A DNA stretch of 64,000 nt, from sequence record LR597663. One strand, 5' to 3'. Shown here one piece after another: positions 1 through 10,455 of this stretch (position 1 is its first letter; each line of letters begins with the position of its first letter). The notes below the pieces were generated by a model, which was not told the origin of the DNA, did no database searches, and saw only the letters and a program-made list of their open reading frames with translations. The stretch is from Escherichia phage VpaE1_ev78. A program made the position numbers and the translations under genes.

Positions 1-57
1 TTGCATATGGCGAATTAATTGATACAGAGCCATCACTATTGTAATTAAAACTTACTG

Positions 58-291
58 TTAACATTTTTCAGTTCTCCTGCGATTTATAATTTTGCTGCAA
101 TAGAGAAACGAAGTAAACTCACTGGAAGAAACCATTAAGTGTTGTTCACTAGATTGAGCCATTGCCCTGAAATACATTCCAGTCAAAGCATCATAGTGAC
201 TATTCTTTCCAATTGAGGTTATATAGCCATGACTCTTTGCAGTTTGATATAAATCTATAATATCTGCGATTTCTAATTGGGAACTACACAT
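58..291 (-). CDS. hypothetical protein (77 aa)
   Basis: Minus-strand ORF with AAGAGGA Shine-Dalgarno about 6 nt upstream of ATG; divergent from the plus-strand early operon. Confidence 0.45.
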   Translation of the reverse strand: MCSSQLEIADIIDLYQTAKSHGYITSIGKNSHYDALTGMYFRAMAQSSEQHLMVSSSEFTSFLYCSKIINRRRTEKC

Positions 292-434
292 AGATAATCC
301 TCTTGTCTTCTGTAATTTTGAAAGAACAGGTACAGACCAATTTCAGAGGATGAATAGTAGATTAACTCTACCCTTTTTGATTCCTTACAGTGATTGGTAT
401 TCTTACCTTTCTTCGGTTTATTTGATTTTCTCAT
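273..434 (-). CDS. hypothetical small basic protein (about 53 aa from internal ATG)
   Basis: ORF 273..455 trimmed to ATG preceded by GGAGA RBS; Lys-rich N-terminus; overlaps start of downstream ORF. Confidence 0.3.
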   Translation of the reverse strand: MRKSNKPKKGKNTNHCKESKRVELIYYSSSEIGLYLFFQNYRRQEDYLCVVPN

Positions 435-529
435 TAAGTCTCCTTTGTAGAACAAGGCAGACCTACAGCTTTAAGTAAGATGGTACAGTAATCCATACAA
501 CAAGTCAAGAACTATTGCAAGTTAAAAAA

Positions 530-575
530 GTTGTTGACAAAGTACTTGACAAGGTGTAGGCTTATAAATACTTAG
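530..575 (+). promoter_or_regulatory. promoter-like element with tandem TTGACA hexamers (GTTGACAAAGTACTTGACAAGGTGT), A/T-rich -10 candidates downstream
   Basis: Two TTGACA boxes 12 nt apart followed by TATAAATA; near-identical copy at about 42018-42048. Confidence 0.45.
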
Positions 576-683
576 AAGATAACTTAAAAGGTTCCTCTAA
601 AAAGGCTATTTAAACAGATATCTTTCTGGATATCTATCTTTTATCTTAAAAGCCTTTTAAGAGGTCTTATAAGAGGCATACCA

Positions 684-1055
684 ATGAAAAACAGAACAAA
701 CAAAGGCCAGTTTAAAAAAGGCCAATCTGGAAACCCATCTGGAAGACCAAAAGGCTCTCGTAACAAAAGTTCACTTGTAAAAGCTCAACTGACCATTGAT
801 AATTCTGCTGAGTTTGCTGCAAAGTTGTTTGAAGCGATTGTTACAAGGGACGCTGCTAAGCTTGCAGAGTTCGGTTTGACGACTGACGATGTAAACCTGA
901 AGTCGATGATGGAAGCTGGTAAAACTATCATGACTCACTCAGCAGGTGAGATGAAAGCGATTGCAGCAGACACTAAGAAGACACCTGATAATGGTGGTCA
1001 GTCTCAGGCAGATAACAAACCAACGTTCTCTGCTGTAGCGACTCTCAAAAAATAA
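684..1055 (+). CDS. hypothetical protein with N-terminal KGQSGNPSGRPKG motif (DUF5681-like, recalled not searched)
   Basis: ATG with AAGAGG RBS; basic Gly/Pro motif at N-terminus, Ala/Lys-rich helical remainder. Confidence 0.65.
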   Translation: MKNRTNKGQFKKGQSGNPSGRPKGSRNKSSLVKAQLTIDNSAEFAAKLFEAIVTRDAAKLAEFGLTTDDVNLKSMMEAGKTIMTHSAGEMKAIAADTKKTPDNGGQSQADNKPTFSAVATLKK

Positions 1056-1067
1056 TTTTAAAAGGTG

Positions 1068-1097
1068 TTGACAGACTCTACAAAGTTGCTCTAAAGT
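1068..1097 (+). promoter_or_regulatory. sigma70-like promoter candidate (TTGACA, 18 nt spacer, TAAAGT)
   Basis: Consensus -35 hexamer read directly; -10 is a weaker match. Confidence 0.45.
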
Positions 1098-1136
1098 CTG
1101 TCACATCAAACAACAAATGAGAGAAGAGAGTAAAAT

Positions 1137-2552
1137 ATGAGCGAATTATTTAAACATGCGCACCTTCATGCAGGTCGAACTGAAAATGGTGCTGTAAACC
1201 ATACTTCATCAATGTCTGCTCTTGTGGACTTTTATAAAGCTGCTGGTTCAAGCCGTAGCAATGTAGAAGTCTTACCAGACCTGTTCTACAAAGCTTTGCG
1301 TGAGGATGTTGATGTTGCAGTTCGTATTTTGCTTCATATGCGAGATGTACGAGAAGGTATGGGTGAGCGTAAAGCCTTCAGAACTGTTTTGCTTCAAGCG
1401 ATTGAAGACAAAGTTTTAGAGCCTGTACAGGTTCTTCGCATTATGGATAAGATTGCAGAACTTGGTCGTTTTGATGACTTCAAAATCTTCGTAGGTACTC
1501 GTTTCGAGACAGATGCCTTCAAACATTTAGAAGCAGCATTACTAGACCCTGCAACAGCAGGTTTGGCAGCCAAGTGGCTACCACGAGTCAAACCACGTCA
1601 TAAGCAGTTTGTAAAACGTTTCTGCAAGTTTGCCAACTTGAGTGAGAAAGAGTACCGCACACTGTTGTCTGCACTATCTGATACAGTTGAGCAAAAAATC
1701 TCTGCTAATGAGTTTGGTAAGATTGACTACAGTAAGATTCCTTCTCTTGCTGCTGCACGTTACCAAAAGCTGTTTAACCGTAAAGATGGAGAGCGTTACA
1801 AAGCTTACATCGAGTCCTTATCAAAGGGTGAGGCTAAGATTAATGCTGGTGCTGTTTACCCATACGATGTGATTAAATCTGTCAAGCATGGTAATGCAGA
1901 TGTTGCTAATGAGCAGTGGAAAGCACTACCAAACTGGATGGCAGAAGGTGAAAACATCTTATGTATGACTGATGTTTCAAGCTCAATGTCTTGGGTGAAT
2001 TTTGGCTCCATTACTGCTCTTGATATTGGTGTATCACTTGCCTTGTATGTAGCAGAACGCAATACAGGTTGCTTTAAGGATGAGTTGATGGTTTATTCAA
2101 CAAACCCTCACTTCATCGAACTGAGTGGTGATTTACGAAACCGTCATCGTCAGGTGATGCGACACGTTGAATATGGCTCAACCAACTTACAAGCAGCTTT
2201 TGACCGCATTCTTGAGATAGGTAAGAGAAACAACTTGACTCAGGAAGATATGCCAAGTAAGCTTATCATCTTCTCCGATATGGAGTTCAATCAGGTTGAT
2301 GGAGCTAACGGTCGTACAAACTTTGAAGCAATTCAGAGCAAGTACAAGAAAGCTGGATATGAGATGCCACAACTGGTATTCTGGTACTTAGCAAACCGTA
2401 ATGGTACTTGCGAAGTGTCTGTTAAGGATAACGGTGTAGCAATGGTATCTGGTTTCTCTCCAGCCACTTTAAAAGCTCTGCTTGGTGGTGAGAAGTTTGA
2501 CCCAATCAGCGTAATGCTCAAAGCAGTAATGATTGACCGCTATATCTGGTAA
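1137..2552 (+). CDS. vWA-domain protein with MIDAS motif and N-terminal helical domain (DUF2828-like / Ro60-like architecture)
   Basis: C-terminal half contains DxSxS (TDVSSSM), a conserved Thr (GSTNL) and Asp (FSDMEF) typical of vWA MIDAS; N-terminal 260 aa predicted helical; RBS GAGAAGAGAG upstream. Confidence 0.75.
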   Translation: MSELFKHAHLHAGRTENGAVNHTSSMSALVDFYKAAGSSRSNVEVLPDLFYKALREDVDVAVRILLHMRDVREGMGERKAFRTVLLQAIEDKVLEPVQVLRIMDKIAELGRFDDFKIFVGTRFETDAFKHLEAALLDPATAGLAAKWLPRVKPRHKQFVKRFCKFANLSEKEYRTLLSALSDTVEQKISANEFGKIDYSKIPSLAAARYQKLFNRKDGERYKAYIESLSKGEAKINAGAVYPYDVIKSVKHGNADVANEQWKALPNWMAEGENILCMTDVSSSMSWVNFGSITALDIGVSLALYVAERNTGCFKDELMVYSTNPHFIELSGDLRNRHRQVMRHVEYGSTNLQAAFDRILEIGKRNNLTQEDMPSKLIIFSDMEFNQVDGANGRTNFEAIQSKYKKAGYEMPQLVFWYLANRNGTCEVSVKDNGVAMVSGFSPATLKALLGGEKFDPISVMLKAVMIDRYIW

Positions 2553-2569
2553 AAAGTTTTAAAAAGGGT

Positions 2570-2598
2570 ATTGACAATGTGTTTAATACCCTTTAATA
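2570..2598 (+). promoter_or_regulatory. sigma70-like promoter (TTGACA, 17 nt, TAATAT); -35 sits inside inverted repeat AAGGGTATT / AATACCCTT
   Basis: Hexamers and spacing read directly from sequence. Confidence 0.55.
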
Positions 2599-2661
2599 TG
2601 TTCTACATAGAAACGAAATGAGAGCTTTTCTAAGATACTGAAAAATATTTTAAAAAAGTTC

Positions 2662-2691
2662 TTGACAATCACTAAAAAATAATGTTAAAGT
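2662..2691 (+). promoter_or_regulatory. sigma70-like promoter upstream of tRNA array (TTGACA, 17-18 nt, TTAAAG/TAAAGT)
   Basis: Consensus -35, approximate -10, about 25 nt upstream of first tRNA. Confidence 0.5.
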
Positions 2692-2716
2692 GGTTACATA
2701 GAGTTTGAAAAGTTTA

Positions 2717-2794
2717 TCTCTGTTTAGCTCAGCTTGGTAGAGCGTTCCGTTTGGGGCGGTAAGGCCGGAGGTTCAAGTCCTCCAACAGAGACCA
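2717..2794 (+). tRNA. tRNA-Pro (anticodon TGG)
   Basis: Hand-folded cloverleaf: 7-bp acceptor CTCTGTT/AACAGAG, D-loop AGCTTGGTAG, T-arm GGAGG-TTCAAGT-CCTCC, anticodon loop TTTGGGG, CCA encoded. Confidence 0.7.
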
Positions 2795-2801
2795 AATTAA
2801 T

Positions 2802-2879
2802 GTTCCAGTAGACAAAATGGTAAAGTCACCACTCTTTCAAAGTGGATATCTGAGGGTTCAAATCCCTTCTGGAACGCCA
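2802..2879 (+). tRNA. tRNA-Glu (anticodon TTC)
   Basis: Acceptor GTTCCAG/CTGGAAC, anticodon arm CCACT-CTTTCAA-AGTGG, T-loop TTCAAAT, CCA encoded. Confidence 0.7.
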
Positions 2880-2885
2880 GTTTTG

Positions 2886-2910
2886 ACAGAAGACCAATTG
2901 CAGCAAACTT
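2886..2910 (+). repeat. tRNA-spacer motif ACAGAAGACC-N5-CAGCAA, copy 1; followed about 60 nt later by GGTCTGG
   Basis: Motif recurs at about 3053, 3449 and 3535, partial copy near 6168. Confidence 0.6.
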
Positions 2911-2970
2911 AATCTTATTCATCTGAAGGTAAATCGGACAAAGAAGAGATTTGGTCTGGTCATTAAGAAT

Positions 2971-3047
2971 TGCGGGTATAGAGAAAGGGCGTCTCACATG
3001 TCTCATTAGCATGGTATCGGCAGGTTCGACTCCTGCACCCGCCTCCA
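2971..3047 (+). tRNA. tRNA with CAT anticodon (Met / initiator / Ile-lysidine type undetermined)
   Basis: T-arm GCAGG-TTCGACT-CCTGC, acceptor with 1:72 mismatch, anticodon stem built on palindromic CATG; position 37 appears to be T, which is atypical. Confidence 0.5.
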
Positions 3048-3052
3048 AATTT

Positions 3053-3077
3053 ACAGAAGACCGTTTACAGCAATATT
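3053..3077 (+). repeat. tRNA-spacer motif ACAGAAGACC-N5-CAGCAA, copy 2
   Basis: TTACAGAAGACCGTTTACAGCAA; GGTCTGG about 58 nt downstream. Confidence 0.6.
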
Positions 3078-3131
3078 TATTAAATTTTTAGCGGAAAAAA
3101 TTGAAAGATACGGTCTGGTAACACTAAACAT

Positions 3132-3208
3132 GGTTAGGAAGCACATAAGGTATGTGCGGTCGCCTGTTAAGCGAATGGCACAGGGTTCGAATCCCTGACT
3201 AACCGCCA
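3132..3208 (+). tRNA. tRNA-Asn (anticodon GTT)
   Basis: Acceptor GGTTAGG/ACTAACC, anticodon loop CTGTTAA, T-arm CAGGG-TTCGAAT-CCCTG, CCA encoded. Confidence 0.7.
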
Positions 3209-3217
3209 AATTTAAAT

Positions 3218-3305
3218 GTGTCGTTATCCCGTAGATGGTAGCGGTGGGGACTGTAAATCCCTTGTCATTGAGACTCGGTAGGTTCGACTCCTACACGGCA
3301 CACCA
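3218..3305 (+). tRNA. tRNA-Tyr (anticodon GTA), long variable arm
   Basis: 88 nt; acceptor GTGTCGT/ACGGCAC, anticodon arm GGGGA-CTGTAAA-TCCCT, T-loop TTCGACT. Confidence 0.7.
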
Positions 3306-3310
3306 ATAAA

Positions 3311-3388
3311 GGTTATGTAGTTTAATTTGGTTAAAATACTCCCCTGTCACGGGAGATGATGAGGGTTCAAATCCCTTCGTAACCGCCA
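3311..3388 (+). tRNA. tRNA-Asp (anticodon GTC)
   Basis: Acceptor GGTTATG/CGTAACC, anticodon arm CTCCC-CTGTCAC-GGGAG, T-loop TTCAAAT. Confidence 0.7.
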
Positions 3389-3448
3389 ATTTTGAGAGGG
3401 CTATTTAGCCCCTCCCTTAAAGAGTTCTTACGAGTATTCTTTAAAGGA

Positions 3449-3472
3449 GCAGAAGACCAAATACAGCAAGTT
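3449..3472 (+). repeat. tRNA-spacer motif, copy 3 (GCAGAAGACCAAATACAGCAA)
   Basis: Same motif family; GGTCTGG about 67 nt downstream. Confidence 0.55.
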
Positions 3473-3534
3473 ATTTAAAATTTCAAGCCAATTTAATTTT
3501 GAAAAATTTAAAACTTGGTCTGGCTCAACAAATT

Positions 3535-3560
3535 TACAGAAGACCGTTTACAGCAAAACT
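3535..3560 (+). repeat. tRNA-spacer motif, copy 4 (TTACAGAAGACCGTTTACAGCAA)
   Basis: Identical core to copy 2. Confidence 0.6.
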
Positions 3561-3591
3561 TAACAATCTATTTCTCCGGTAAAGAAAAGGC

Positions 3592-3626
3592 GAAGGTTCG
3601 ATTCCTTCACTCGGCAGATGTCGAGT
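3592..3626 (+). ncRNA. tRNA-like minihelix: canonical T-arm (GAAGG-TTCGATT-CCTTC) directly followed by a 7-bp acceptor-like hairpin (ACTCGGC-AGAT-GTCGAGT); no D or anticodon arm found
   Basis: T-loop consensus present but no complementary 5-prime acceptor strand within 120 nt upstream; complementary strand lies immediately downstream. Confidence 0.4.
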
Positions 3627-3668
3627 TGGTGTAATGGTAGTACTTAAGATGATAAACAACGGTCTGGT

Positions 3669-3688
3669 AATTATCTTTGTAGATAAGT
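3669..3688 (+). repeat. hairpin element TTATCT-TTGT-AGATAA preceded by GGTCTGG
   Basis: Second copy with inverted loop (TTATCT-ACAA-AGATAA) at about 3795-3810; the two flank roughly 105 nt. Confidence 0.55.
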
Positions 3689-3792
3689 TATTAAGCTTAC
3701 CTGTGAGTATGCGACCACAAAGGGTGAAAGGGTAAATTCTAGATTTAAACCCAAAAAGGCACATCGCTACAGACCTTAAGCAAGTCTGGGTA

Positions 3793-3812
3793 GCTTATCT
3801 ACAAAGATAATT
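3793..3812 (+). repeat. hairpin element TTATCT-ACAA-AGATAA, second copy, preceded by GTCTGGG
   Basis: Reverse complement of the copy at 3669-3688. Confidence 0.55.
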
Positions 3813-3816
3813 TAAT

Positions 3817-3892
3817 GGAAGTGTAGCAGAATGGTGATGCGGCAGACTTTTAATCTGACAGGCGATGGGTTCGAATCCCTCCACTTCTACCA
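3817..3892 (+). tRNA. tRNA-Lys (anticodon TTT)
   Basis: Acceptor GGAAGTG/CACTTCT, anticodon loop CTTTTAA, T-loop TTCGAAT; two outer T-stem mismatches. Confidence 0.6.
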
Positions 3893-3896
3893 ATAT

Positions 3897-3973
3897 GGTT
3901 CAGTCGCAGATAAGGTAATGCAAGGGTCTCATAAGCCCTATGAATGTGGGTTCGATTCCCATCTGAACCTCCA
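3897..3973 (+). tRNA. tRNA-Met (anticodon CAT)
   Basis: Acceptor GGTTCAG/CTGAACC, anticodon arm AGGGT-CTCATAA-GCCCT, T-loop TTCGATT, CCA encoded. Confidence 0.65.
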
Positions 3974-3974
3974 A

Positions 3975-4050
3975 GCTGGTATAGTTAAGAAGGTTATAAC
4001 ACTCCCCTGATAAGGGAACATCGGTGGTTCGATTCCACCTACCAGTACCA
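3975..4050 (+). tRNA. tRNA-Ile (anticodon GAT)
   Basis: Acceptor GCTGGTA/TACCAGT, anticodon loop CTGATAA, T-arm GGTGG-TTCGATT-CCACC. Confidence 0.65.
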
Positions 4051-4065
4051 ATTTCAATAAAGTTG

Positions 4066-4094
4066 TTGACATTGAGATGTGACTACTTTATAGT
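4066..4094 (+). promoter_or_regulatory. sigma70-like promoter (TTGACA, 17 nt, TATAGT)
   Basis: Near-consensus hexamers with 17-nt spacer inside the tRNA array. Confidence 0.6.
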
Positions 4095-4298
4095 AACCTT
4101 AGTTTTCGTTGCGTAGCGTCTATTTTGCAAATTTAAAATAAATGCAAACGACAATGTTTTTCTGGCAGTAGCTTGATAGGCTAAACACCAGTGAGGTCTT
4201 CCAATCCCTCATCAAAGAATTTGGCGTACTCGCCCACGGTATGATTAATAAGGTGGGCATCTTTAAGGGCTTTCTAAGAGAGTCTTTAAAGATAATTA

Positions 4299-4380
4299 CG
4301 GGGCGTATCTCAGCGGTCTTCTAAACCGCCGTTAACCGAGTAAGTGGAGTATGCGGGTTCGAGTCCTGCCGCCTCGACCA
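4299..4380 (+). tRNA. atypical tRNA-like gene (82 nt): acceptor and T-arm canonical, anticodon-like hairpin with loop CTTCTAA (TCT, Arg-like), no recognisable D-arm, 23-nt extra region
   Basis: Acceptor CGGGGCG/CGCCTCG, T-arm GCGGG-TTCGAGT-CCTGC, CCA encoded; the only strong internal hairpin is GCGGT-CTTCTAA-ACCGC right after positions 8-9. Confidence 0.45.
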
Positions 4381-4394
4381 ATTTTGGAGAAATC

Positions 4395-4742
4395 ATGAAA
4401 ACTTGTATTAGGTGCAAACTTAGCAAGGATGAAAATGATTTCTACATGAAAGATGGTAGGAGAACTCATTCATACTGTAAAAAGTGTGTTAATGAGCAAA
4501 CCATAGAAAGACAAAGAGCACTTAAACTCTCAGCTATTGAGTACAAAGGTGGGGTTTGTCACGATTGTGGTAAAAAGTATCATCCAGCAGTGTATGACTT
4601 CCATCATTTGAATCCTTCAGAGAAAGATTTTAACATTGGTCATAGGAAAAGCCTTAAGTTCTCTCAAGAACTAAAAGATGAACTTGACAAATGTGTTTTG
4701 CTATGTTCAAATTGCCATAGGGTAAGACATGCAAAGTATTAG
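4395..4742 (+). CDS. HNH homing endonuclease
   Basis: Motif DFHHLNPSEKDF...CVLLCSNCHRVRH; ORF-track start lies inside the upstream tRNA, so trimmed to ATG at 4395 (RBS GGAGA). Confidence 0.8.
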   Translation: MKTCIRCKLSKDENDFYMKDGRRTHSYCKKCVNEQTIERQRALKLSAIEYKGGVCHDCGKKYHPAVYDFHHLNPSEKDFNIGHRKSLKFSQELKDELDKCVLLCSNCHRVRHAKY

Positions 4743-4885
4743 TTAGCAGATTACTTAGACGACCTAAGCGGGTCTTCCTGTAGGGAGGTGGTCTGTATCT
4801 CATGTTTTCCAGAACATGTAAATAATCTGAGAAGAAGCTTGACAGTGTTGAGATAACAGGGTAAGCTTCGAATTATAGTTTTAAT

Positions 4886-4956
4886 AGGGGTGAGCTATGG
4901 CAGCAATAGAGTCTCCAAAATTCTTGATTAGAGTTCGAATCTCTACACCCCTGCCA
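4886..4956 (+). tRNA. tRNA-Trp (anticodon CCA), short with reduced D-arm
   Basis: Acceptor AGGGGTG/CACCCCT, anticodon arm AGAGT-CTCCAAA-ATTCT, T-arm TAGAG-TTCGAAT-CTCTA; about 71 nt. Confidence 0.55.
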
Positions 4957-4970
4957 GAACAGGTGCTTGT

Positions 4971-5375
4971 ATGAAACTTTGTAGAAAATGTTCTCAAGAA
5001 AAGCCTTTAAGCTGCTTTCATAAAAGAGGTAATGGCTATCAGTCTGCTTGCAAAGATTGTAAAGCTAAGTACTCAGCAAAGAGATACAAAGAAGACCCTA
5101 CTTATAAAGCAAAAAGAAAAGTTAGGGCAAAATATGACAAAAAGAGGAACAGAGAGTTCCTTAGTAGATATAAAAAGTTTTGCAAATGCAGAATATGTGG
5201 CGAATCTGAGCCAGTAGCTTTGGATTTTCATCACTTAGACCCTAAAGAGAAAGATTTTGCTCCAAGCAATCTTAAAACTTACTCTAGGGGCACTATTAAG
5301 CGTGAAGTCCGTAAGTGTGTTGTGCTTTGTTCAAACTGTCATAGGAAAGTTCATGAAGGACTGTTAAGTATTTAA
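4971..5375 (+). CDS. HNH homing endonuclease (paralogue of 4395..4742)
   Basis: Motif DFHHLDPKEKDF...CVVLCSNCHRKVH; RBS AGGTG. Confidence 0.8.
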   Translation: MKLCRKCSQEKPLSCFHKRGNGYQSACKDCKAKYSAKRYKEDPTYKAKRKVRAKYDKKRNREFLSRYKKFCKCRICGESEPVALDFHHLDPKEKDFAPSNLKTYSRGTIKREVRKCVVLCSNCHRKVHEGLLSI

Positions 5376-5388
5376 CAGTCTTATTAGG

Positions 5389-5476
5389 GGTAGGTAGCGG
5401 CTAATGGTAGCCAAACTGTCTTGAAAACAGTTGCCACTGTAGAGATACGGTGAGGGTTCGACTCCTTTACTTACCG
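5389..5476 (+). tRNA. tRNA-Ser (anticodon TGA), long variable arm
   Basis: Acceptor GGTAGGT/ACTTACC, anticodon arm ACTGT-CTTGAAA-ACAGT, T-loop TTCGACT; CCA not encoded. Confidence 0.65.
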
Positions 5477-5633
5477 CCTAATAAGATTTAAAGCCAAGCT
5501 TCATTCGGATGTTGCTTTGGTATCCCGCGTGTATTGTTGTACACACTGATAAAGCACCTAGTAGGTGTCACGGAGAAGAGATAATATCAAGCTCTCCAAA
5601 GGTTCTAGTCACCGGATTAAACAAGACTATGCA

Positions 5634-5654
5634 AAGACCTTTTTAGGTCTTTTT
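5634..5654 (+). terminator. possible intrinsic terminator or processing hairpin (AAGACC-TTTTTA-GGTCTT plus TTTT)
   Basis: Short hairpin followed by T-run inside the tRNA array. Confidence 0.3.
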
Positions 5655-5733
5655 AGAGGGCTTCTAAGGTTATTACAGCTTGTTGTGGAACCTTGTTGCT
5701 TAGGTTCTTAGAAGTTCTCTAAAAAGATTTAAT

Positions 5734-5811
5734 GGGAGATTGACGGTAATTGGTAAACCTATCTCGCTTAGAACGAGATGTTTGAGGGTTCGAATCCCTT
5801 GTCTCCTACCA
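5734..5811 (+). tRNA. tRNA with TAG anticodon (nominally Leu) but type-I short variable arm
   Basis: Acceptor GGGAGAT/GTCTCCT, anticodon arm TCTCG-CTTAGAA-CGAGA, T-arm GAGGG-TTCGAAT-CCCTT; variable region about 5 nt. Confidence 0.55.
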
Positions 5812-5818
5812 AATTAAT

Positions 5819-5894
5819 GCAGGTGTAGCAAAATGGTTATGCGGCTGACTCTTAATCAGTAAGACGATGGGTTCAATTCCCTCCACCTGTACCA
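5819..5894 (+). tRNA. tRNA-Lys (anticodon CTT)
   Basis: Acceptor GCAGGTG/CACCTGT, anticodon loop CTCTTAA, T-loop TTCAATT; similar to the 3817 tRNA. Confidence 0.6.
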
Positions 5895-5899
5895 AAAAT

Positions 5900-5975
5900 G
5901 GGGTCATAGTTTATATGGTTAAAATTCGAGTTTTGCAAACTTGGGAACTGAGTTCAATTCTCAGTGACTCCACCA
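5900..5975 (+). tRNA. tRNA-Ala (anticodon TGC)
   Basis: Acceptor GGGGTCA/TGACTCC, anticodon arm CGAGT-TTTGCAA-ACTTG, T-arm CTGAG-TTCAATT-CTCAG. Confidence 0.65.
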
Positions 5976-5981
5976 ATTAGT

Positions 5982-6056
5982 GCATCCATAGTTTAAACGG
6001 GAAAATTACAGTCTTCCAAACTGAGGTTGAGGGTTCGATTCCCTCTGGATGCTCCA
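5982..6056 (+). tRNA. tRNA-Gly (anticodon TCC)
   Basis: Acceptor GCATCCA/TGGATGC, anticodon loop CTTCCAA, T-arm GAGGG-TTCGATT-CCCTC. Confidence 0.65.
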
Positions 6057-6063
6057 AATTAAT

Positions 6064-6139
6064 GCTCCTATCGTATAATTGGCTATTACGGTTGCCTTGT
6101 AAGTAACTTATCAGGGTTCGAATCCTTGTGGGAGCACCA
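6064..6139 (+). tRNA. tRNA-Thr (anticodon TGT)
   Basis: Acceptor GCTCCTA/TGGGAGC, anticodon arm GTTGC-CTTGTAA-GTAAC, T-loop TTCGAAT. Confidence 0.65.
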
Positions 6140-6236
6140 ATTTAGAGGTCAAGTGAAAGACCGCTTTGAGTCAACTGAAGACCGTAACAAATTCCACGGA
6201 GTTGAGTTAGCGGCACAACTCCAGACCTCTTCTCAC

Positions 6237-6311
6237 ACTCGCTTAGTTTATATGGTAAAACACCACCCTTACAAGATGAAGAAAAAGGTTCAAGTCCTTT
6301 AGTGAGTACCA
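6237..6311 (+). tRNA. tRNA, probably Val (anticodon TAC); weak anticodon stem
   Basis: Acceptor ACTCGCT/AGTGAGT, T-arm AAAGG-TTCAAGT-CCTTT, anticodon loop CTTACAA with two stem mismatches. Confidence 0.45.
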
Positions 6312-6312
6312 T

Positions 6313-6390
6313 GTTCCAGTATCCCAATTGGCAGAGGATGCAAGCTCAAACCTTGTACTAGTGATGGTTCGAATCCATCTTGGAACACCA
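6313..6390 (+). tRNA. tRNA with CAA anticodon (nominally Leu) but type-I short variable arm
   Basis: Acceptor GTTCCAG/TTGGAAC, anticodon arm GCAAG-CTCAAAC-CTTGT, T-arm GATGG-TTCGAAT-CCATC. Confidence 0.5.
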
Positions 6391-6395
6391 ATTTT

Positions 6396-6471
6396 GCAGG
6401 ATTAGTTCAAATGGATAGAGCAACAGTCTACGAAGCTGTTAATAGGGGTTCAAATCCCTTATCCTGCGCCA
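6396..6471 (+). tRNA. tRNA-Arg (anticodon ACG)
   Basis: Acceptor GCAGGAT/ATCCTGC, anticodon arm ACAGT-CTACGAA-GCTGT, T-loop TTCAAAT. Confidence 0.65.
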
Positions 6472-6490
6472 ATTTAAAGAGGCTATTTAG

Positions 6491-7048
6491 ATGAGATATT
6501 TGAAGTATGCTTCATGGATTTTCTTAGCTTTGTTAGAACCATTTGCAGCAATCTTAGCAGTTATCTTAGCACCTTTTGTAGTTCCATTCTACAGTGAGAA
6601 GAAAGGACACTTACCTTTCGGGTTCAGATGGATGGAGACATATGACAACCCAATTGATGGTGATGAAGGTCACGTTAAAAGATGGGCTAATATTAGATGG
6701 ATTGGTAAACTAGGTGTCTACATGCAAAGAGTCGGATGGCTCTGGAGAAACAAAGCTTATAACTTCTCTTACCATGTGTTAGGAAGAGATGTAAAAGATG
6801 TTACTAAGTGGAAAGGTAATATCAACGTAAGTTCTAACCCTGAAGATAATCAGACAGGTTATCTCCTAATGTGGAACAGTAATGCTTGGGGATTATTCGC
6901 TTTTACCCCATCAATTAAAATCTTTGGTAAACAGTTTTACTGGAGAATTTATATTGGGTGGAAGCTAAAAAGTGTTGTCCCAGAAGAAAGAGCATTCTCA
7001 AGGGAAAGAGTTATGTTGGCATTCTTTATTCATCCACTAAGAAAGTAA
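6491..7048 (+). CDS. Trp-rich membrane protein of unknown function (185 aa) inside the tRNA array
   Basis: RBS AAAGAGG; hydrophobic N-terminal segment WIFLALLEPFAAILAVILAPFVVPF; many Trp residues. Confidence 0.65.
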   Translation: MRYLKYASWIFLALLEPFAAILAVILAPFVVPFYSEKKGHLPFGFRWMETYDNPIDGDEGHVKRWANIRWIGKLGVYMQRVGWLWRNKAYNFSYHVLGRDVKDVTKWKGNINVSSNPEDNQTGYLLMWNSNAWGLFAFTPSIKIFGKQFYWRIYIGWKLKSVVPEERAFSRERVMLAFFIHPLRK

Positions 7049-7056
7049 AGATTTAA

Positions 7057-7132
7057 AGGGGATTAGTTTACAAGGTTAAAACCTCGGTCTTTGAAATCGA
7101 AGAAGTTGGTTCAATTCCAACATCCCCCGCCA
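7057..7132 (+). tRNA. tRNA-Gln (anticodon TTG)
   Basis: Acceptor AGGGGAT/ATCCCCC with 1:72 mismatch, anticodon loop CTTTGAA, T-arm GTTGG-TTCAATT-CCAAC. Confidence 0.6.
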
Positions 7133-7134
7133 AT

Positions 7135-7213
7135 GCTCCATTACTCCAATTGGCAGAGAGGCCAGACTTAAAATCTGTGTTATGTATCGGTTCGAATCCG
7201 ATATGGAGTACCA
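7135..7213 (+). tRNA. tRNA with TAA anticodon (nominally Leu) but type-I variable arm (about 7 nt)
   Basis: Acceptor GCTCCAT/ATGGAGT, anticodon loop CTTAAAA, T-arm ATCGG-TTCGAAT-CCGAT. Confidence 0.5.
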
Positions 7214-7218
7214 AATTT

Positions 7219-7294
7219 AGCGGTATAGCATAACTGGCAATGCAGCAGCCTCTGAAGCTGTCCTATTAAGGTTCAAATCCTTATGCCGCTGCCA
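7219..7294 (+). tRNA. tRNA-Gln (anticodon CTG)
   Basis: Acceptor AGCGGTA/TGCCGCT, anticodon arm GCAGC-CTCTGAA-GCTGT, T-arm TAAGG-TTCAAAT-CCTTA. Confidence 0.6.
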
Positions 7295-7325
7295 CTTCTA
7301 AGGATTCTTACGAGAGTCCTTAAAT

Positions 7326-7401
7326 GTGGCCTTATCATAAATGGTAATGACCCATGCTGTGAACATGGTCTATACGGGTTCAAATCCCGTAGGTCACCCC
7401 A
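7326..7401 (+). tRNA. tRNA-His (anticodon GTG)
   Basis: Acceptor GTGGCCT/AGGTCAC, perfect anticodon arm CCATG-CTGTGAA-CATGG, T-arm ACGGG-TTCAAAT-CCCGT. Confidence 0.7.
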
Positions 7402-7406
7402 ATTTA

Positions 7407-7481
7407 TAGTCCAAGTAGCTTATATGGTTAAAGCGCGTGTCTGAAAAACATGAGAAGAGGGTTCAAATCCCACTGGACTAC
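7407..7481 (+). tRNA. tRNA-Phe (anticodon GAA)
   Basis: Acceptor TAGTCCA/TGGACTA, anticodon arm CGTGT-CTGAAAA-ACATG, T-loop TTCAAAT; CCA not fully encoded. Confidence 0.6.
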
Positions 7482-7499
7482 CAATTTCAAAGGTGCTTA

Positions 7500-8234
7500 A
7501 TGAAAGAGATGACAGAACAAGGTAAGGAGATTTTTAATCTCTTAAAAACCGGTAAAGGGTTCTCTAACCCACTTATTACTGGTGCAGCAGTTCTCGGTGG
7601 AACCGTAGCTGCTTCTACATCACTTGTAAGCTCTATTAGTTCTGTAACAGACCCTACAATGAAGGAGAAACTTGTTGCTGCTGGACTTACAACAGTCCTT
7701 CTAAACAGCTTTACAACAAGCCTTACAAGCACTACAGCAACTACTAAAACTCTGACAGACTACGGTCAAAAGTCTATTGATGAGTTTTCATCACGTATGC
7801 AGGTAGCAAAGGGGTATTCCAATGTTATGGGTGCAGCAGGAGAACAAGTTGGTTGTACACCATTCAGTGGTATCATGGGTGTTGCTACAGAGTATGGTCA
7901 AAAAGCTATTGACATGATGAACAGTACACTAGATAGTGTTAATGGTGTGTTAAGTGACTTGCAAGATGCTATTGATAAGGGTCTTGATACTGTTTCTGAT
8001 TTAGCTAATCAGGCTGTTAGTAAGATTAATGAAGGTATTTCAAAGATTACAGCTTATGCAGATGAAGTTGTGCAGATGATTGAAGAAGAAGCTGCCCTTA
8101 TTGCAGAGTACCTTAAAACGAATATCAATGGGTTCTTAGCAGGTATCTTACCAGACTGGTTTGATGATGCCTGTAAAACTGGTGTGATTGACACTATTGC
8201 AACACCAGAAATGAAGAGCGCATTACAGAAATAA
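7500..8234 (+). CDS. hypothetical Ser/Thr/Ala-rich protein (244 aa) inside the tRNA array
   Basis: ORF-track start overlaps tRNA-Phe; trimmed to in-frame ATG at 7500; low-complexity T/S/A/G-rich middle. Confidence 0.5.
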   Translation: MKEMTEQGKEIFNLLKTGKGFSNPLITGAAVLGGTVAASTSLVSSISSVTDPTMKEKLVAAGLTTVLLNSFTTSLTSTTATTKTLTDYGQKSIDEFSSRMQVAKGYSNVMGAAGEQVGCTPFSGIMGVATEYGQKAIDMMNSTLDSVNGVLSDLQDAIDKGLDTVSDLANQAVSKINEGISKITAYADEVVQMIEEEAALIAEYLKTNINGFLAGILPDWFDDACKTGVIDTIATPEMKSALQK

Positions 8235-8236
8235 AT

Positions 8237-8329
8237 GGAAGATTAACCCTAAAAGGTAAGGGAGCAGTTTGCTAAACTGCCAGTAGCTGAGAAATCGGTG
8301 TACCAGTTCAAGTCTGGTATCTTCCTCCA
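8237..8329 (+). tRNA. tRNA-Ser (anticodon GCT), long variable arm
   Basis: 93 nt; acceptor GGAAGAT/ATCTTCC, anticodon arm GCAGT-TTGCTAA-ACTGC, T-arm ACCAG-TTCAAGT-CTGGT; starts 3 nt after upstream stop. Confidence 0.7.
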
Positions 8330-8333
8330 ATTT

Positions 8334-8409
8334 GAATCCGTGACAGAAATGGCTATGTGCCTGTCTGCAAAACAGGTTTATAAGGGTTCGAGTCCCTTCG
8401 GATTCTCCA
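8334..8409 (+). tRNA. tRNA-Cys (anticodon GCA)
   Basis: Acceptor GAATCCG/CGGATTC, anticodon arm CCTGT-CTGCAAA-ACAGG, T-arm AAGGG-TTCGAGT-CCCTT. Confidence 0.7.
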
Positions 8410-8446
8410 AGTTATTTTACTCTCTCTCAATTAAAATAATAATAAT

Positions 8447-8516
8447 GCCCTGCTATAAGTATTCTTCCTTTCGCTACCGAAGAGTATTTTTAGACAGGGC
8501 TTTTTTACAGAGTTAT
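8447..8516 (+). terminator. intrinsic terminator closing the tRNA array (long imperfect hairpin GCCCTG...CAGGGC plus TTTTTT)
   Basis: Stem arms with internal sub-stem, followed by six T. Confidence 0.55.
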
Positions 8517-8571
8517 ACTTTATAAGAAGGCTTATACAGTATGTCTCTGACGTACATTGTGGTTTCTCCTT

Positions 8572-8595
8572 GACGGTCTCTGTGCCGTCTTTTTT
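8572..8595 (+). terminator. intrinsic terminator (GACGG-TCTCTGTG-CCGTC plus TTTTTT)
   Basis: GC-rich 5-bp stem and T-run immediately upstream of structural module. Confidence 0.6.
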
Positions 8596-8631
8596 AAGGA
8601 GAAACATGGTTAATTATTTGGAGAAAACATA

Positions 8632-8832
8632 ATGAGTGAGACCGTTTATAAAGAACTTTATGAAGCTAATAAGAAGCTAGAATTTATGCAGAATACTATC
8701 ATGGCAATTGCAGACAGATTGTCTGTAGCAACAGGTATTGATATTAAAGAAGCATCTATGGATGCACTTCTTGATGCTGTTGATGCAAAGTTCGAAGTTA
8801 AGAAAGAAGAGACTGCTACAGACTCTGAATAA
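8632..8832 (+). CDS. hypothetical small acidic protein (66 aa), possible terminase-associated
   Basis: RBS GGAG; directly upstream of terminase large subunit; assignment positional only. Confidence 0.45.
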   Translation: MSETVYKELYEANKKLEFMQNTIMAIADRLSVATGIDIKEASMDALLDAVDAKFEVKKEETATDSE

Positions 8833-8853
8833 TTCTATTTGCGGAGGCGCTTA

Positions 8854-10455
8854 ATGGACTTAAATGCTGTTAAGCAGAAGCGAGTGGAAGATGTTAGGAA
8901 AGTCCTAGCTGGAGAGTTGGGGCTTTCTGATGAAGTAAAAGAAATTATCAAATCATTCGGTAAAGACCCCTCTAAATTCCTTCCAACTCAAATTCTGACT
9001 TTATTAAGATACACACCAGACCAAGTTCGCCTTATCTTTAAATTGATGACTGATAAGAACTATGTAGCCCCTCAACCGGGTTCTCAAGAGGTCTTTTTAA
9101 ATACTAATGCTGACTTGGTTCTTTATGGTGGTGCTGCTGGTGCTGGTAAAACTGCTGCATTGTTAATGGACTCTTTAAGATTTATTGAAGACCCTAACTA
9201 TAATGCTGTATATTTCCGTCGAAATACAACACAGTTACAAGGTGGTTTATGGCCTGCTGCAAAGAAACTATTTGGTAAGTTTGGTGGGATTCCTCACGAG
9301 CAGAAGATGACTATCACATTCCCTTCTGGGGCAACTATCAAGTTTACCTACCTAGAACTTGAAAAGCACGCTGAAGGTCATCAGGGTATTGAATACTCAG
9401 CTATTTACTTTGACGAAGGTACACACTTCTCTGCTTCACAGATTTCATACCTACAAACCCGTCTACGTTCTGGTGCTGAAGGCGATTCATACATGAAGAT
9501 TTCCATGAACCCAGACAGAGACCATTTTATTTATGATTGGGTAGAACCATTCTTAGATGAAGAAGGTTATCCAGACCCTGAAAAGTGTGGTCGTATTCGT
9601 TGGTATGTAATGAATGATGGTGTGATGGTTTCTGATTGGGAGAGAGACAAGATTCTTGAAATGTTCCCTCTTGAGATTCCTCAAACATACACCTTTATCT
9701 CTGGTACGATTGATGATAACCCAATCCTTGACTTCTTAGAGCCTAAGTACCGTGGTAAGTTGGAAAACAACACCCCTGTAAACGTTGCAAGACTTCGTTT
9801 CGGTAACTGGAAGGCTCGTGCAGAAGGTTCAAACTATTGGCAAAGACAATGGTGTGAAATTGTTGATTCACTCCCAGAAGATGTATTTGATGTTAGAGCA
9901 TGGGACTTAGCAGCAACTTTACCATCTGAGATTAACCCTAATCCAGACTGGACAGCAGGTGTTAAGATGGGTAAATCTAAAAAAGACGGTTGCTATTATA
10001 TCATTGATGTAGTAAGATTTAGAGATAGACCCTCTGGAGTCGAAACACAAATTAATTTGACTGCTGAAAGTGACGGTAAGCGAACTGGTATTTTTATCCC
10101 TCAAGACCCAGGCGCTGCTGGTAAATCCTACGCAACATCCCTCATCAGGAAACTTGCCGAGAAAGGCTATCGTGCAAGAGCTAAACCAACAAATAAAGAT
10201 AAAGTTACCCGATTTGCGGGGTTTTCTGCTGCTTCTGAAGCTGGACTTGTAAAAGTCTTGAGAGGTAGTTGGAACGAAGCTTACTTCCAAGAACTTGAAG
10301 GCTTTTGTGGTGATGGTAAAACTAAAGATGACCAAGTGGATGCTACCAGTGATGCTTTCAACAGTCTTAACGAAGTTAAATTATTCAAGCCACCATCAAT
10401 GGGTGCTCACACAGACTTAGTGAGAGGAAACCCATATGAGGGGCTTAGACGTTGA
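8854..10455 (+). CDS. terminase large subunit
   Basis: Walker A LYGGAAGAGKTAAL, Walker B-like IYFDEGTH, C-terminal nuclease-like region; start trimmed to ATG with GGAGG RBS. Confidence 0.85.
   Translation: MDLNAVKQKRVEDVRKVLAGELGLSDEVKEIIKSFGKDPSKFLPTQILTLLRYTPDQVRLIFKLMTDKNYVAPQPGSQEVFLNTNADLVLYGGAAGAGKTAALLMDSLRFIEDPNYNAVYFRRNTTQLQGGLWPAAKKLFGKFGGIPHEQKMTITFPSGATIKFTYLELEKHAEGHQGIEYSAIYFDEGTHFSASQISYLQTRLRSGAEGDSYMKISMNPDRDHFIYDWVEPFLDEEGYPDPEKCGRIRWYVMNDGVMVSDWERDKILEMFPLEIPQTYTFISGTIDDNPILDFLEPKYRGKLENNTPVNVARLRFGNWKARAEGSNYWQRQWCEIVDSLPEDVFDVRAWDLAATLPSEINPNPDWTAGVKMGKSKKDGCYYIIDVVRFRDRPSGVETQINLTAESDGKRTGIFIPQDPGAAGKSYATSLIRKLAEKGYRARAKPTNKDKVTRFAGFSAASEAGLVKVLRGSWNEAYFQELEGFCGDGKTKDDQVDATSDAFNSLNEVKLFKPPSMGAHTDLVRGNPYEGLRR

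Follow-up and report, generated by a model that had tools for sequence, protein, structure and literature searches.

The open reading frame at positions 6491–7048 (+ strand) of Escherichia phage VpaE1_ev78 (LR597663) is a functional, strongly conserved Felixounavirus gene under strong purifying selection, and its product belongs to an already catalogued but uncharacterised family, DUF7338. The whole stretch of DNA analysed, 64,000 nucleotides long, is called the window below. As to function, the reading which we prefer, with a probability of about 0.4, is that of an inner-membrane-anchored, periplasm-facing accessory factor, which would act on a conserved component of the cell envelope, either by exclusion or by alteration of the surface.

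The gene and its product

The coding sequence (6491..7048, +) starts with ATG and specifies 185 amino acids plus the stop codon. A Shine-Dalgarno sequence, AAAGAGG (6476..6482, +), is located 8 nt before the ATG, inside a spacer of 19 nt which follows a tRNA-Arg gene. The window is a segment of a Felixounavirus (Ounavirinae) genome; its bases 6000–7500 match 255 phage records and are 99.6% identical to Escherichia phage VpaE1_ev108, whose counterpart protein is 100% identical. Orthologues are ORF48 of Felix O1 (Felix01p097) and bas63_0153 of Bas63, which is "hypothetical" in the expert annotation of that phage. The reading frame was intact in all 23 distinct Felixounavirus alleles, and the median dN/dS was 0.066 (242 pairs); the ORF is therefore a real, constrained gene. 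An earlier note on this DNA, which was made from the sequence alone, had proposed an ORF of 185 residues here, and the start codon, the ribosome binding site and the constrained alleles all bear it out.

The same note had described an unusual number of Trp and Tyr residues. With 11 Trp (5.9%) the protein ranks first among the 65 window ORFs of at least 100 amino acids (mean 1.2%), the Poisson tail being about 3e-5 as estimated from the window mean; it also ranks first in the sum of Trp, Tyr and Phe (18.9%), in line with that description. The pI is 9.9 and Cys is absent. There is a single hydrophobic segment at about residues 8–33, with a Kyte-Doolittle 19-mer maximum of 2.38. Hydropathy, an AlphaFold2 model and alignment together delimit the codons of the N-terminal hydrophobic helix (residues ~9–33, WIFLALLEPFAAILAVILAPFVVPF; 6515..6589, +), a predicted signal-anchor transmembrane helix.

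The DUF7338 family

The Pfam family DUF7338 (PF24027) matched residues 1–184 of the 185 with E=1.3e-61 and 207.9 bits, against a cut-off of 27, and phrog_2143 ("unknown function") matched the full length at E=2e-79. No NCBIfam family matched the protein, nor did any defence-system model of PADLOC-DB at E≤1. All 81 diverse family members, scanned at E≤1, matched only DUF7338 and phrog_2143, and no second recurrent family appeared among them. A literature search found no paper which mentioned DUF7338, PF24027, phrog_2143 or the locus tags. The earlier note had assigned no function to the protein and had named a known structural or lysis function, identified by a profile search, as the result that would speak against its reading. 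Searches of Pfam, PHROGs, NCBIfam and PADLOC returned no such function, and the only families obtained, DUF7338 and PHROG 2143, are both functionally uncharacterised. The more general view of a Trp-rich membrane protein with one helix in a tRNA array can thus be kept; the suggestion of anti-defence found no specific pointer, either in PADLOC or among the neighbouring genes.

Members of the family are stand-alone proteins of about 170–200 residues, with one N-terminal hydrophobic helix and a compact, Trp-rich and basic alpha/beta domain of about 150 residues. Among the 81 diverse members W83, R86, N87 and G156 are invariant, and P42, T50, D52, G57, G109, G123, W157 and K158 are at least 90% conserved; P28, within the N-terminal helix, is invariant among closer relatives. 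All family-conserved residues are present in the window protein (alignments of 29 and 81 diverse members). The statement that no enzymatic motif can be recognised holds for known motifs only, since a conserved polar and aromatic signature exists, which comprises T50, D52, N53 and G57, then W83, R86, N87 and Y90, and finally G156, W157 and K158. Its first part is encoded by the juxtamembrane loop codons T50-Y-D52-N53-P-I-D-G57-D58 (6638..6664, +), its second by the codons W83-L-W-R86-N87-K-A-Y90 (6737..6760, +), both as defined by alignment of diverse members.

DUF7338 was found by tblastn in 601 phage records. Carriers were the Felixounaviruses, several T4-like genera of the Straboviridae (RB43, Klebsiella, Enterobacter and Cronobacter phages, STP4-a and Dhaka-type coliphages), Otagoviruses of Pseudomonas and Pectobacterium, jumbo phages of Aeromonas, Serratia and Klebsiella, Sinorhizobium phage phiM9 and one Bacillus-labelled phage, AgentSmith. 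For the latter the Bacillus host is a label of the record only, and the DUF7338 core is the sole similarity that was found besides tRNA matches. An exhaustive profile search yielded 889 clusters at 50% identity, nearly all of 160–200 amino acids. A pattern scan of bacterial genomes, one per species, gave just six loci, several of them resembling prophage or contaminating phage; judged from these searches, the family is almost entirely phage-borne. The named hosts are almost all diderm and span Enterobacterales, Pseudomonas, Aeromonas, Rhizobia, Burkholderiales/Neisseriales and Selenomonadaceae.

Several unusual members were noted. A 178-kb contig of a "Flagellimonas marina" assembly (L002; NZ_JBHSCL010000010.1) carries a DUF7338 gene whose product is 59% identical to the window protein, with the neighbours of RB43-type enterobacterial T4-like phages; it is probably the genome of a contaminating or co-cultured phage and not Flagellimonas DNA. 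The longer members mostly have N-terminal extensions. One protein (P0078, 288 amino acids) has a C-terminal extension with the string SCDKHDNCY, which is phospholipase A2-like by eye, followed by a hydrophobic tail. This extension has no Pfam match; it may derive from fusion with an adjacent gene and hint at an activity directed at lipids. Another protein (P0033), which ends with a tail-fibre C-terminal domain, was rejected as a domain fusion, as it looks like a chimera from assembly or frameshift.

Predicted structure and membrane topology

An AlphaFold2 model, calculated with a 29-sequence alignment, had a pLDDT of 91.8 and a pTM of 0.81. It consists of a 32-residue N-terminal helix (residues 2–33, pLDDT 91–98), four short helices and a five-stranded, antiparallel, aromatic-rich sheet. 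Shortly behind the membrane helix, the loop between model helices 43–48 and 59–64 contains the T-x-D-N...G motif, and WLWRN is found at the end of helix 73–86. The strongly hydrophobic N-terminal helix, which the earlier note had seen, is present both as the one segment in the hydropathy profile and as a helix of the model. A search of the PDB gave no fold relative, and as modelled the fold resembles no solved structure. The only sequence-profile match in the PDB was the JEV M protein (E=0.69), which was dismissed as a chance hit.

A single hydrophobic helix is present in 238 of 245 representatives of the family. The tail in front of it is short (median length, 5 residues), its net charge is +2, and for the 15 residues behind it this value is −0.3; the charge distribution favours the N-in/C-out orientation in 131 representatives and the opposite one in 43. 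From this distribution we infer that the helix serves as a signal anchor which leaves the short N-terminus cytoplasmic and places the domain on the periplasmic side; this is a statistical prediction. The domain has a mean net charge of +6.7 over the 245 representatives and often contains a single Cys, and these properties would also suit a cytoplasmic location. A signal-arrest-release domain was considered and rejected, since the helix is too hydrophobic, and no signal-peptidase site was seen by eye in the window protein.

The tRNA array and expression of the gene

The gene is embedded in an array of 26 tRNA genes, all on the + strand (2718..8409, ARAGORN), which further includes two HNH-like ORFs and a gene for a DUF7217 protein. 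On the same strand, 19 nt separate the end of tRNA-Arg(acg) (6396..6471) from the start codon, and 8 nt separate the stop codon from tRNA-Gln(ttg) (7057..7132), both tRNAs being placed by ARAGORN and Rfam, in full agreement with the location within a tRNA array that had been claimed earlier. An Rfam scan of window positions 1–9000 found tRNAs only. The nearest strong sigma-70-like promoter match upstream, TTGACA-17-TATAGT (4066..4094, +; 11 of 12 positions), is a candidate for the transcript start, with the reservation that promoter-like sites in the window as a whole are not above shuffle expectation. The first clear intrinsic-terminator-like hairpin with a T-run after the array (8572..8599, +) is a candidate for the transcript end, and the window scan gave no promoter- or terminator-like site between these two. 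Spacers of 19 and 8 nt are too short for a promoter or terminator, and the mRNA is therefore predicted to be transcribed together with the tRNAs, in one polycistronic precursor. As the geometry of the spacers suggests, tRNA processing would then release it, with RNase P cutting in front of tRNA-Gln, at its 5' end, and with trimming of the 3' end of tRNA-Arg. The arrangement should provide a clean natural case for the study of mRNA release from a tRNA precursor.

In Bas63, tRNA-Leu(caa) replaces tRNA-Arg(acg) before the gene, and the spacer is again 19 nt (L176 29864–30518, compared with window 6313–7048). In several Felixounavirus loci from IMG/VR the nearest tRNA detected upstream is about 257 nt away. 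The tRNA before the gene is therefore variable; the tRNA-Gln which follows the stop codon at 8 nt does not vary. The DUF7338 gene of Pseudomonas phage phiPsa347 starts about 20 nt after a tRNA-Gln.

Some other genes in and near the array deserve mention. The second protein gene of the array (7503–8234, +) matches Pfam DUF7217 with E=2e-87. It is listed from a GTG at 7437, overlapping tRNA-Phe (7408–7483), and its true start is probably the ATG at 7503. Between tRNA genes there are two small Cys-rich ORFs with HNH-type motifs (4395–4742 and 4971–5375, both +), which gave weak Pfam HNH matches below the cut-off. In Felix O1 the corresponding genes carry the annotation HNH endonuclease. The two ORFs probably encode homing endonucleases, and their presence marks the array as a place where mobile and accessory genes tend to collect. 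At 4299–4377 (+) the Rfam tRNA model scores 31.7 bits (gathering score 29) where ARAGORN makes no call; this match, which may be a degenerate or pseudo-tRNA, overlaps with the N-terminal extension that the first HNH-like ORF has when it is started at its GTG. Directly upstream of the array a protein of 471 amino acids is encoded (1137–2552, +), with DUF2828, DUF7788 and weak VWA matches. Its Felix O1 orthologue is an "RNA-binding protein" in RefSeq, and its Bas63 orthologue is gp130, which according to the PhageMaP preprint is Ro60-like and counters ppl defence (PMC11482910). The authors of that preprint suggest that some "tRNAs" of the array may be Y-RNA-like; its main text gives no gene-level fitness for Bas63 gene 153 (PMC11482910).

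Gene context in other phages

DUF7338 genes occur in two recurrent contexts, namely in tRNA clusters of large lytic phages and after tail-fibre genes in smaller phages. In all relatives with an identity of 55% or more, one truncated copy (L042) excepted, a tRNA on the same strand precedes the gene by less than 1 kb, and in RB43 and STP4-a the pair of tRNA and DUF7338 gene is found at different places of the genome. Two Otagoviruses, with about 26% identity, have the gene inside arrays of 20–22 tRNAs. In AgentSmith, L093 and the prophage-like L003, tRNAs are 1.1–1.7 kb from the gene. Locations inside or within 2 kb of tRNA clusters were noted for L010 (4986–5546), L177 (5001–5516), L009, L008, L043, L052, L171 and L093. 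These are observations on individual loci, and most members of the family occur in phages without a tRNA within 5–6 kb. The flanking tRNAs of different lineages are no more alike than other isoacceptor pairs, which argues against one recent block transfer; a transfer of tRNAs plus ORF as a block among Felixounavirus, Otagovirus and T4-like phages was rejected for this reason. The tRNA-adjacent arrangement seems to have arisen or persisted independently across lineages.

In the smaller, often temperate-looking phages, DUF7338 is the first gene after tail-fibre, fibre-assembly or baseplate genes, and a lysis cassette is frequently next. A census of 43 clusters (60% identity) showed fibre and baseplate families dominating the three upstream genes (Gp10_C, Collar, DUF2612, Phage_tail_APC, DUF4376, GpJ, mtd and Caudo_TAP) and an endolysin within three genes in about one fifth of the clusters. 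Holin and endolysin genes are located directly 3' of DUF7338 in L060, L066, L068 and L088. The order in a Jeongeupia prophage is fibre, DUF4376, DUF7338, two holins and Peptidase_M23; in L092 it is holin, VanY-type endolysin, a 76-residue ORF, DUF7338 and integrase. The gene comes right after fibre genes in L091 and phiM9, after an unannotated protein of 1331 amino acids in phiWae14, and in one phage it lies in the replication module. Defence or anti-defence genes were not found as recurring neighbours. Both tRNA islands and the 3' edge of tail-fibre blocks are classical hot spots of accessory genes, the latter being the classical place of exclusion genes such as cor and llp.

The "holin" label

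DUF7338 proteins are labelled "holin" or "putative holin" in scattered GenBank records. Neither the window protein nor the 81 relatives matched a holin family in Pfam, NCBIfam or PHROGs. Homology to holin T was tried and rejected, hhalign giving a probability of 0.2% against the gpT-like holin of Klebsiella phage Miro, a phage which carries both DUF7338 and this holin. Other relatives adjoin Pfam holins, i.e., Phage_holin_4_1 with GTA_holin_3TM, Phage_holin_8 with Phage_holin_3_7, or Phage_holin_3_3. Like holins, DUF7338 is a small protein with at least one transmembrane helix; linkage to lysis genes is lacking in Felixounavirus, where distances from about 8 kb to more than 20 kb separate the gene from those for lysin, endolysin and spanin, the endolysin gene being on the other strand. 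A better holin candidate is the two-helix protein bas63_0116 of Bas63, near the endolysin. The Felix O1 genome paper reported no holin-lysin cassette and named holin candidates without ORF48 (PMC3185647). The labels found no support in any of this. DUF7338 coexists with other holin families and with gpT, and it is our committed guess that the protein is not the holin of the phage. A known function would also correct these labels, which are now spreading in GenBank.

Possible functions

We would expect DUF7338 to be a non-virion protein, acting on the envelope of the infected cell in the manner of membrane-anchored proteins for superinfection exclusion or surface alteration. The invariant loop residues T50, D52, N53 and G57, about 15–25 residues behind the helix, would form a site together with the WLWRNxAY helix end; the invariant residues and the conserved proline-containing helix suggest that this predicted binding or catalytic site is at the outer face of the inner membrane, where a glycan, a lipid-linked phosphate or another ligand common to all diderm hosts would be a suitable partner. 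In favour of such an envelope factor are the topology statistics of the 245 representatives, the conservation, the family identity together with its constraint, the accessory hot-spot positions in tRNA islands and at the edges of tail-fibre blocks, the almost exclusively diderm hosts, the coexistence with true holins, and the published list of Felix O1 virion proteins, which does not contain ORF48 (PMC3185647). Several points tell against it: the basic domain (+6.7) and the frequent single Cys also fit the cytoplasm, exclusion proteins are usually narrow in range while DUF7338 spans very distant phages, and the late-operon position in temperate-looking phages is not where an exclusion gene expressed from a prophage needs to be. 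In addition, the linkage to endolysins in about one fifth of the clusters and some stop/start overlaps with holin genes favour a role in lysis, which is the main rival explanation. The protein would then be an accessory of the lysis cassette. It could permeabilise the membrane like a holin, act as an antiholin or regulate the timing, or assist endolysin or spanin, and it would have an inner-membrane anchor and a periplasmic domain like T4 T and RI. This is a live rival, because distant relatives often adjoin holin or endolysin genes, although we consider it unlikely. In at least seven independent clades DUF7338 directly adjoins holin and endolysin genes of different families (Phage_lysozyme, GH108, GH19, Peptidase_M23 and VanY/M15 among the endolysins), in L089 its stop codon overlaps the start of a holin gene, in STP4-a an endolysin follows about 670 bp downstream, several GenBank records use the holin label, and in Felixounaviruses no holin has been identified experimentally, nor is one annotated in Bas63. 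It is weakened by the fact that just about 20% of the clusters have an endolysin within three genes, by the distance of more than 20 kb to the lysin and spanin genes in the VpaE1_ev78 lineage, where better holin candidates exist (bas63_0116 and the set in PMC3185647), by the coexistence with four different canonical holin families and gpT, none of which it resembles, and by invariant polar residues in a soluble domain conserved across very distant phages, which is atypical of holins.

The linkage to tail-fibre genes could also point to a membrane-bound factor or chaperone for the assembly of fibre or baseplate, or to a minor virion or ejection protein, which we regard as quite improbable. The dominance of fibre and baseplate families upstream, likewise seen in phiM9 and L091, and the position behind the 1331-residue protein in phiWae14 would agree with it, as would the detection of the neighbouring DUF7217 protein (Felix O1 Gp49) in virions (PMC3185647). 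Gp49, the product of ORF49, was found by mass spectrometry in a 51-kDa virion band, though the protein has only about 26 kDa (PMC3185647); an equation of DUF7338 with this virion protein was rejected, since DUF7338 is ORF48, which is missing from the virion list. Furthermore, the fibre genes of Felixounavirus and T4-like phages lie at a great distance from this gene, and a stable, strongly hydrophobic membrane anchor would be unusual for a fibre chaperone. A cytoplasmic domain (N-out, C-in) with a role in nucleic acid or tRNA metabolism, membrane-tethered, basic and possibly metal-binding, appears very improbable to us. It would explain the linkage to tRNA clusters, with a tRNA within 2 kb in five groups (Felixounavirus, several Straboviridae genera, Otagovirus, AgentSmith and L093, with L003 as a sixth) and flanking tRNAs whose lack of unusual similarity speaks against a single recent block transfer; the pI of 9.9, the charge of the domain (mean +6.7) and the acidic cluster D52/D56/D58 are compatible with it. 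Against this stand the presence of most members in phages without a tRNA within 5–6 kb, the charge distribution (131 to 43 in favour of N-in/C-out), the lack of similarity to any enzyme or binding fold for nucleic acids, and the general nature of tRNA islands as accessory hot spots, the array of VpaE1_ev78 itself holding HNH endonuclease ORFs.

Returning to the envelope factor, a more far-reaching proposal, which we consider doubtful, is that DUF7338 is the first of a new class of phage envelope effectors, with a new fold, a juxtamembrane active or binding site, a diderm-wide target and repeated recruitment into tRNA units. The site would be built from the invariant T-x-D-N...G and W-x-x-R-N-x-x-Y residues, and among its possible targets are lipid-linked glycans or phosphates on the outer face of the inner membrane; in this way very different phages might alter or seal the surface of the infected cell. 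Large lytic phages would repeatedly have recruited the gene into tRNA units, the message being obtained from tRNA processing. A membrane-anchored domain which is conserved, and for which a new fold and an invariant polar pocket are predicted, is a plausible source of a new envelope-targeting activity. Once found, the function would annotate about 890 phage protein clusters (50% identity) at once, including genes of Felix O1-type and T4-type phages for biocontrol or therapy against Salmonella, E. coli and Klebsiella; as matters stand, DUF7338 is another conserved phage protein of unknown function.

Comparison with known systems

Within DUF7338 / PHROG 2143 the window protein is a typical member, as its length, architecture and conserved residues all match. 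Its gene can be compared with mixed tRNA-mRNA operons, such as thrU-tyrU-glyT-thrT-tufB of E. coli and the tRNA cluster of T4, which are processed by the enzymes of tRNA maturation. The likeness consists in an ORF and flanking tRNAs on the same strand, with spacers too short for a separate promoter or terminator; the difference is that the ORF is internal here, with tRNAs on both sides at 19 and 8 nt, and that processing is deduced from the arrangement.

With the class III holin T of T4 the protein shares a single N-terminal membrane helix in front of a domain of about 150 residues, which for DUF7338 is predicted to be periplasmic, and frequently a position right after tail-fibre genes, as is the case for gene t in T4-like phages (Miro). 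It differs in having no similarity in sequence, profile or fold, in its coexistence with a gpT-like holin in Miro, and in its location away from lysis genes in VpaE1_ev78.

The membrane-anchored superinfection-exclusion proteins, among them T4 Imm and Sp, lactococcal Sie2009, T5 Llp and Cor of phi80 and N15, are narrow in their range of hosts or targets. Their genes are accessory genes of hot spots, often beside those for receptor-binding proteins, and are dispensable for growth in the laboratory. Superinfection exclusion or another action on membrane or envelope fits the architecture of DUF7338 and its accessory hot-spot position: like these proteins it is small, probably accessory and has an anchor in or at the inner membrane, and its active part would likewise face away from the cytoplasm if the predicted topology is right. 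DUF7338 differs from them in lacking homology and in its invariant polar residues, which are retained across very distant phages.
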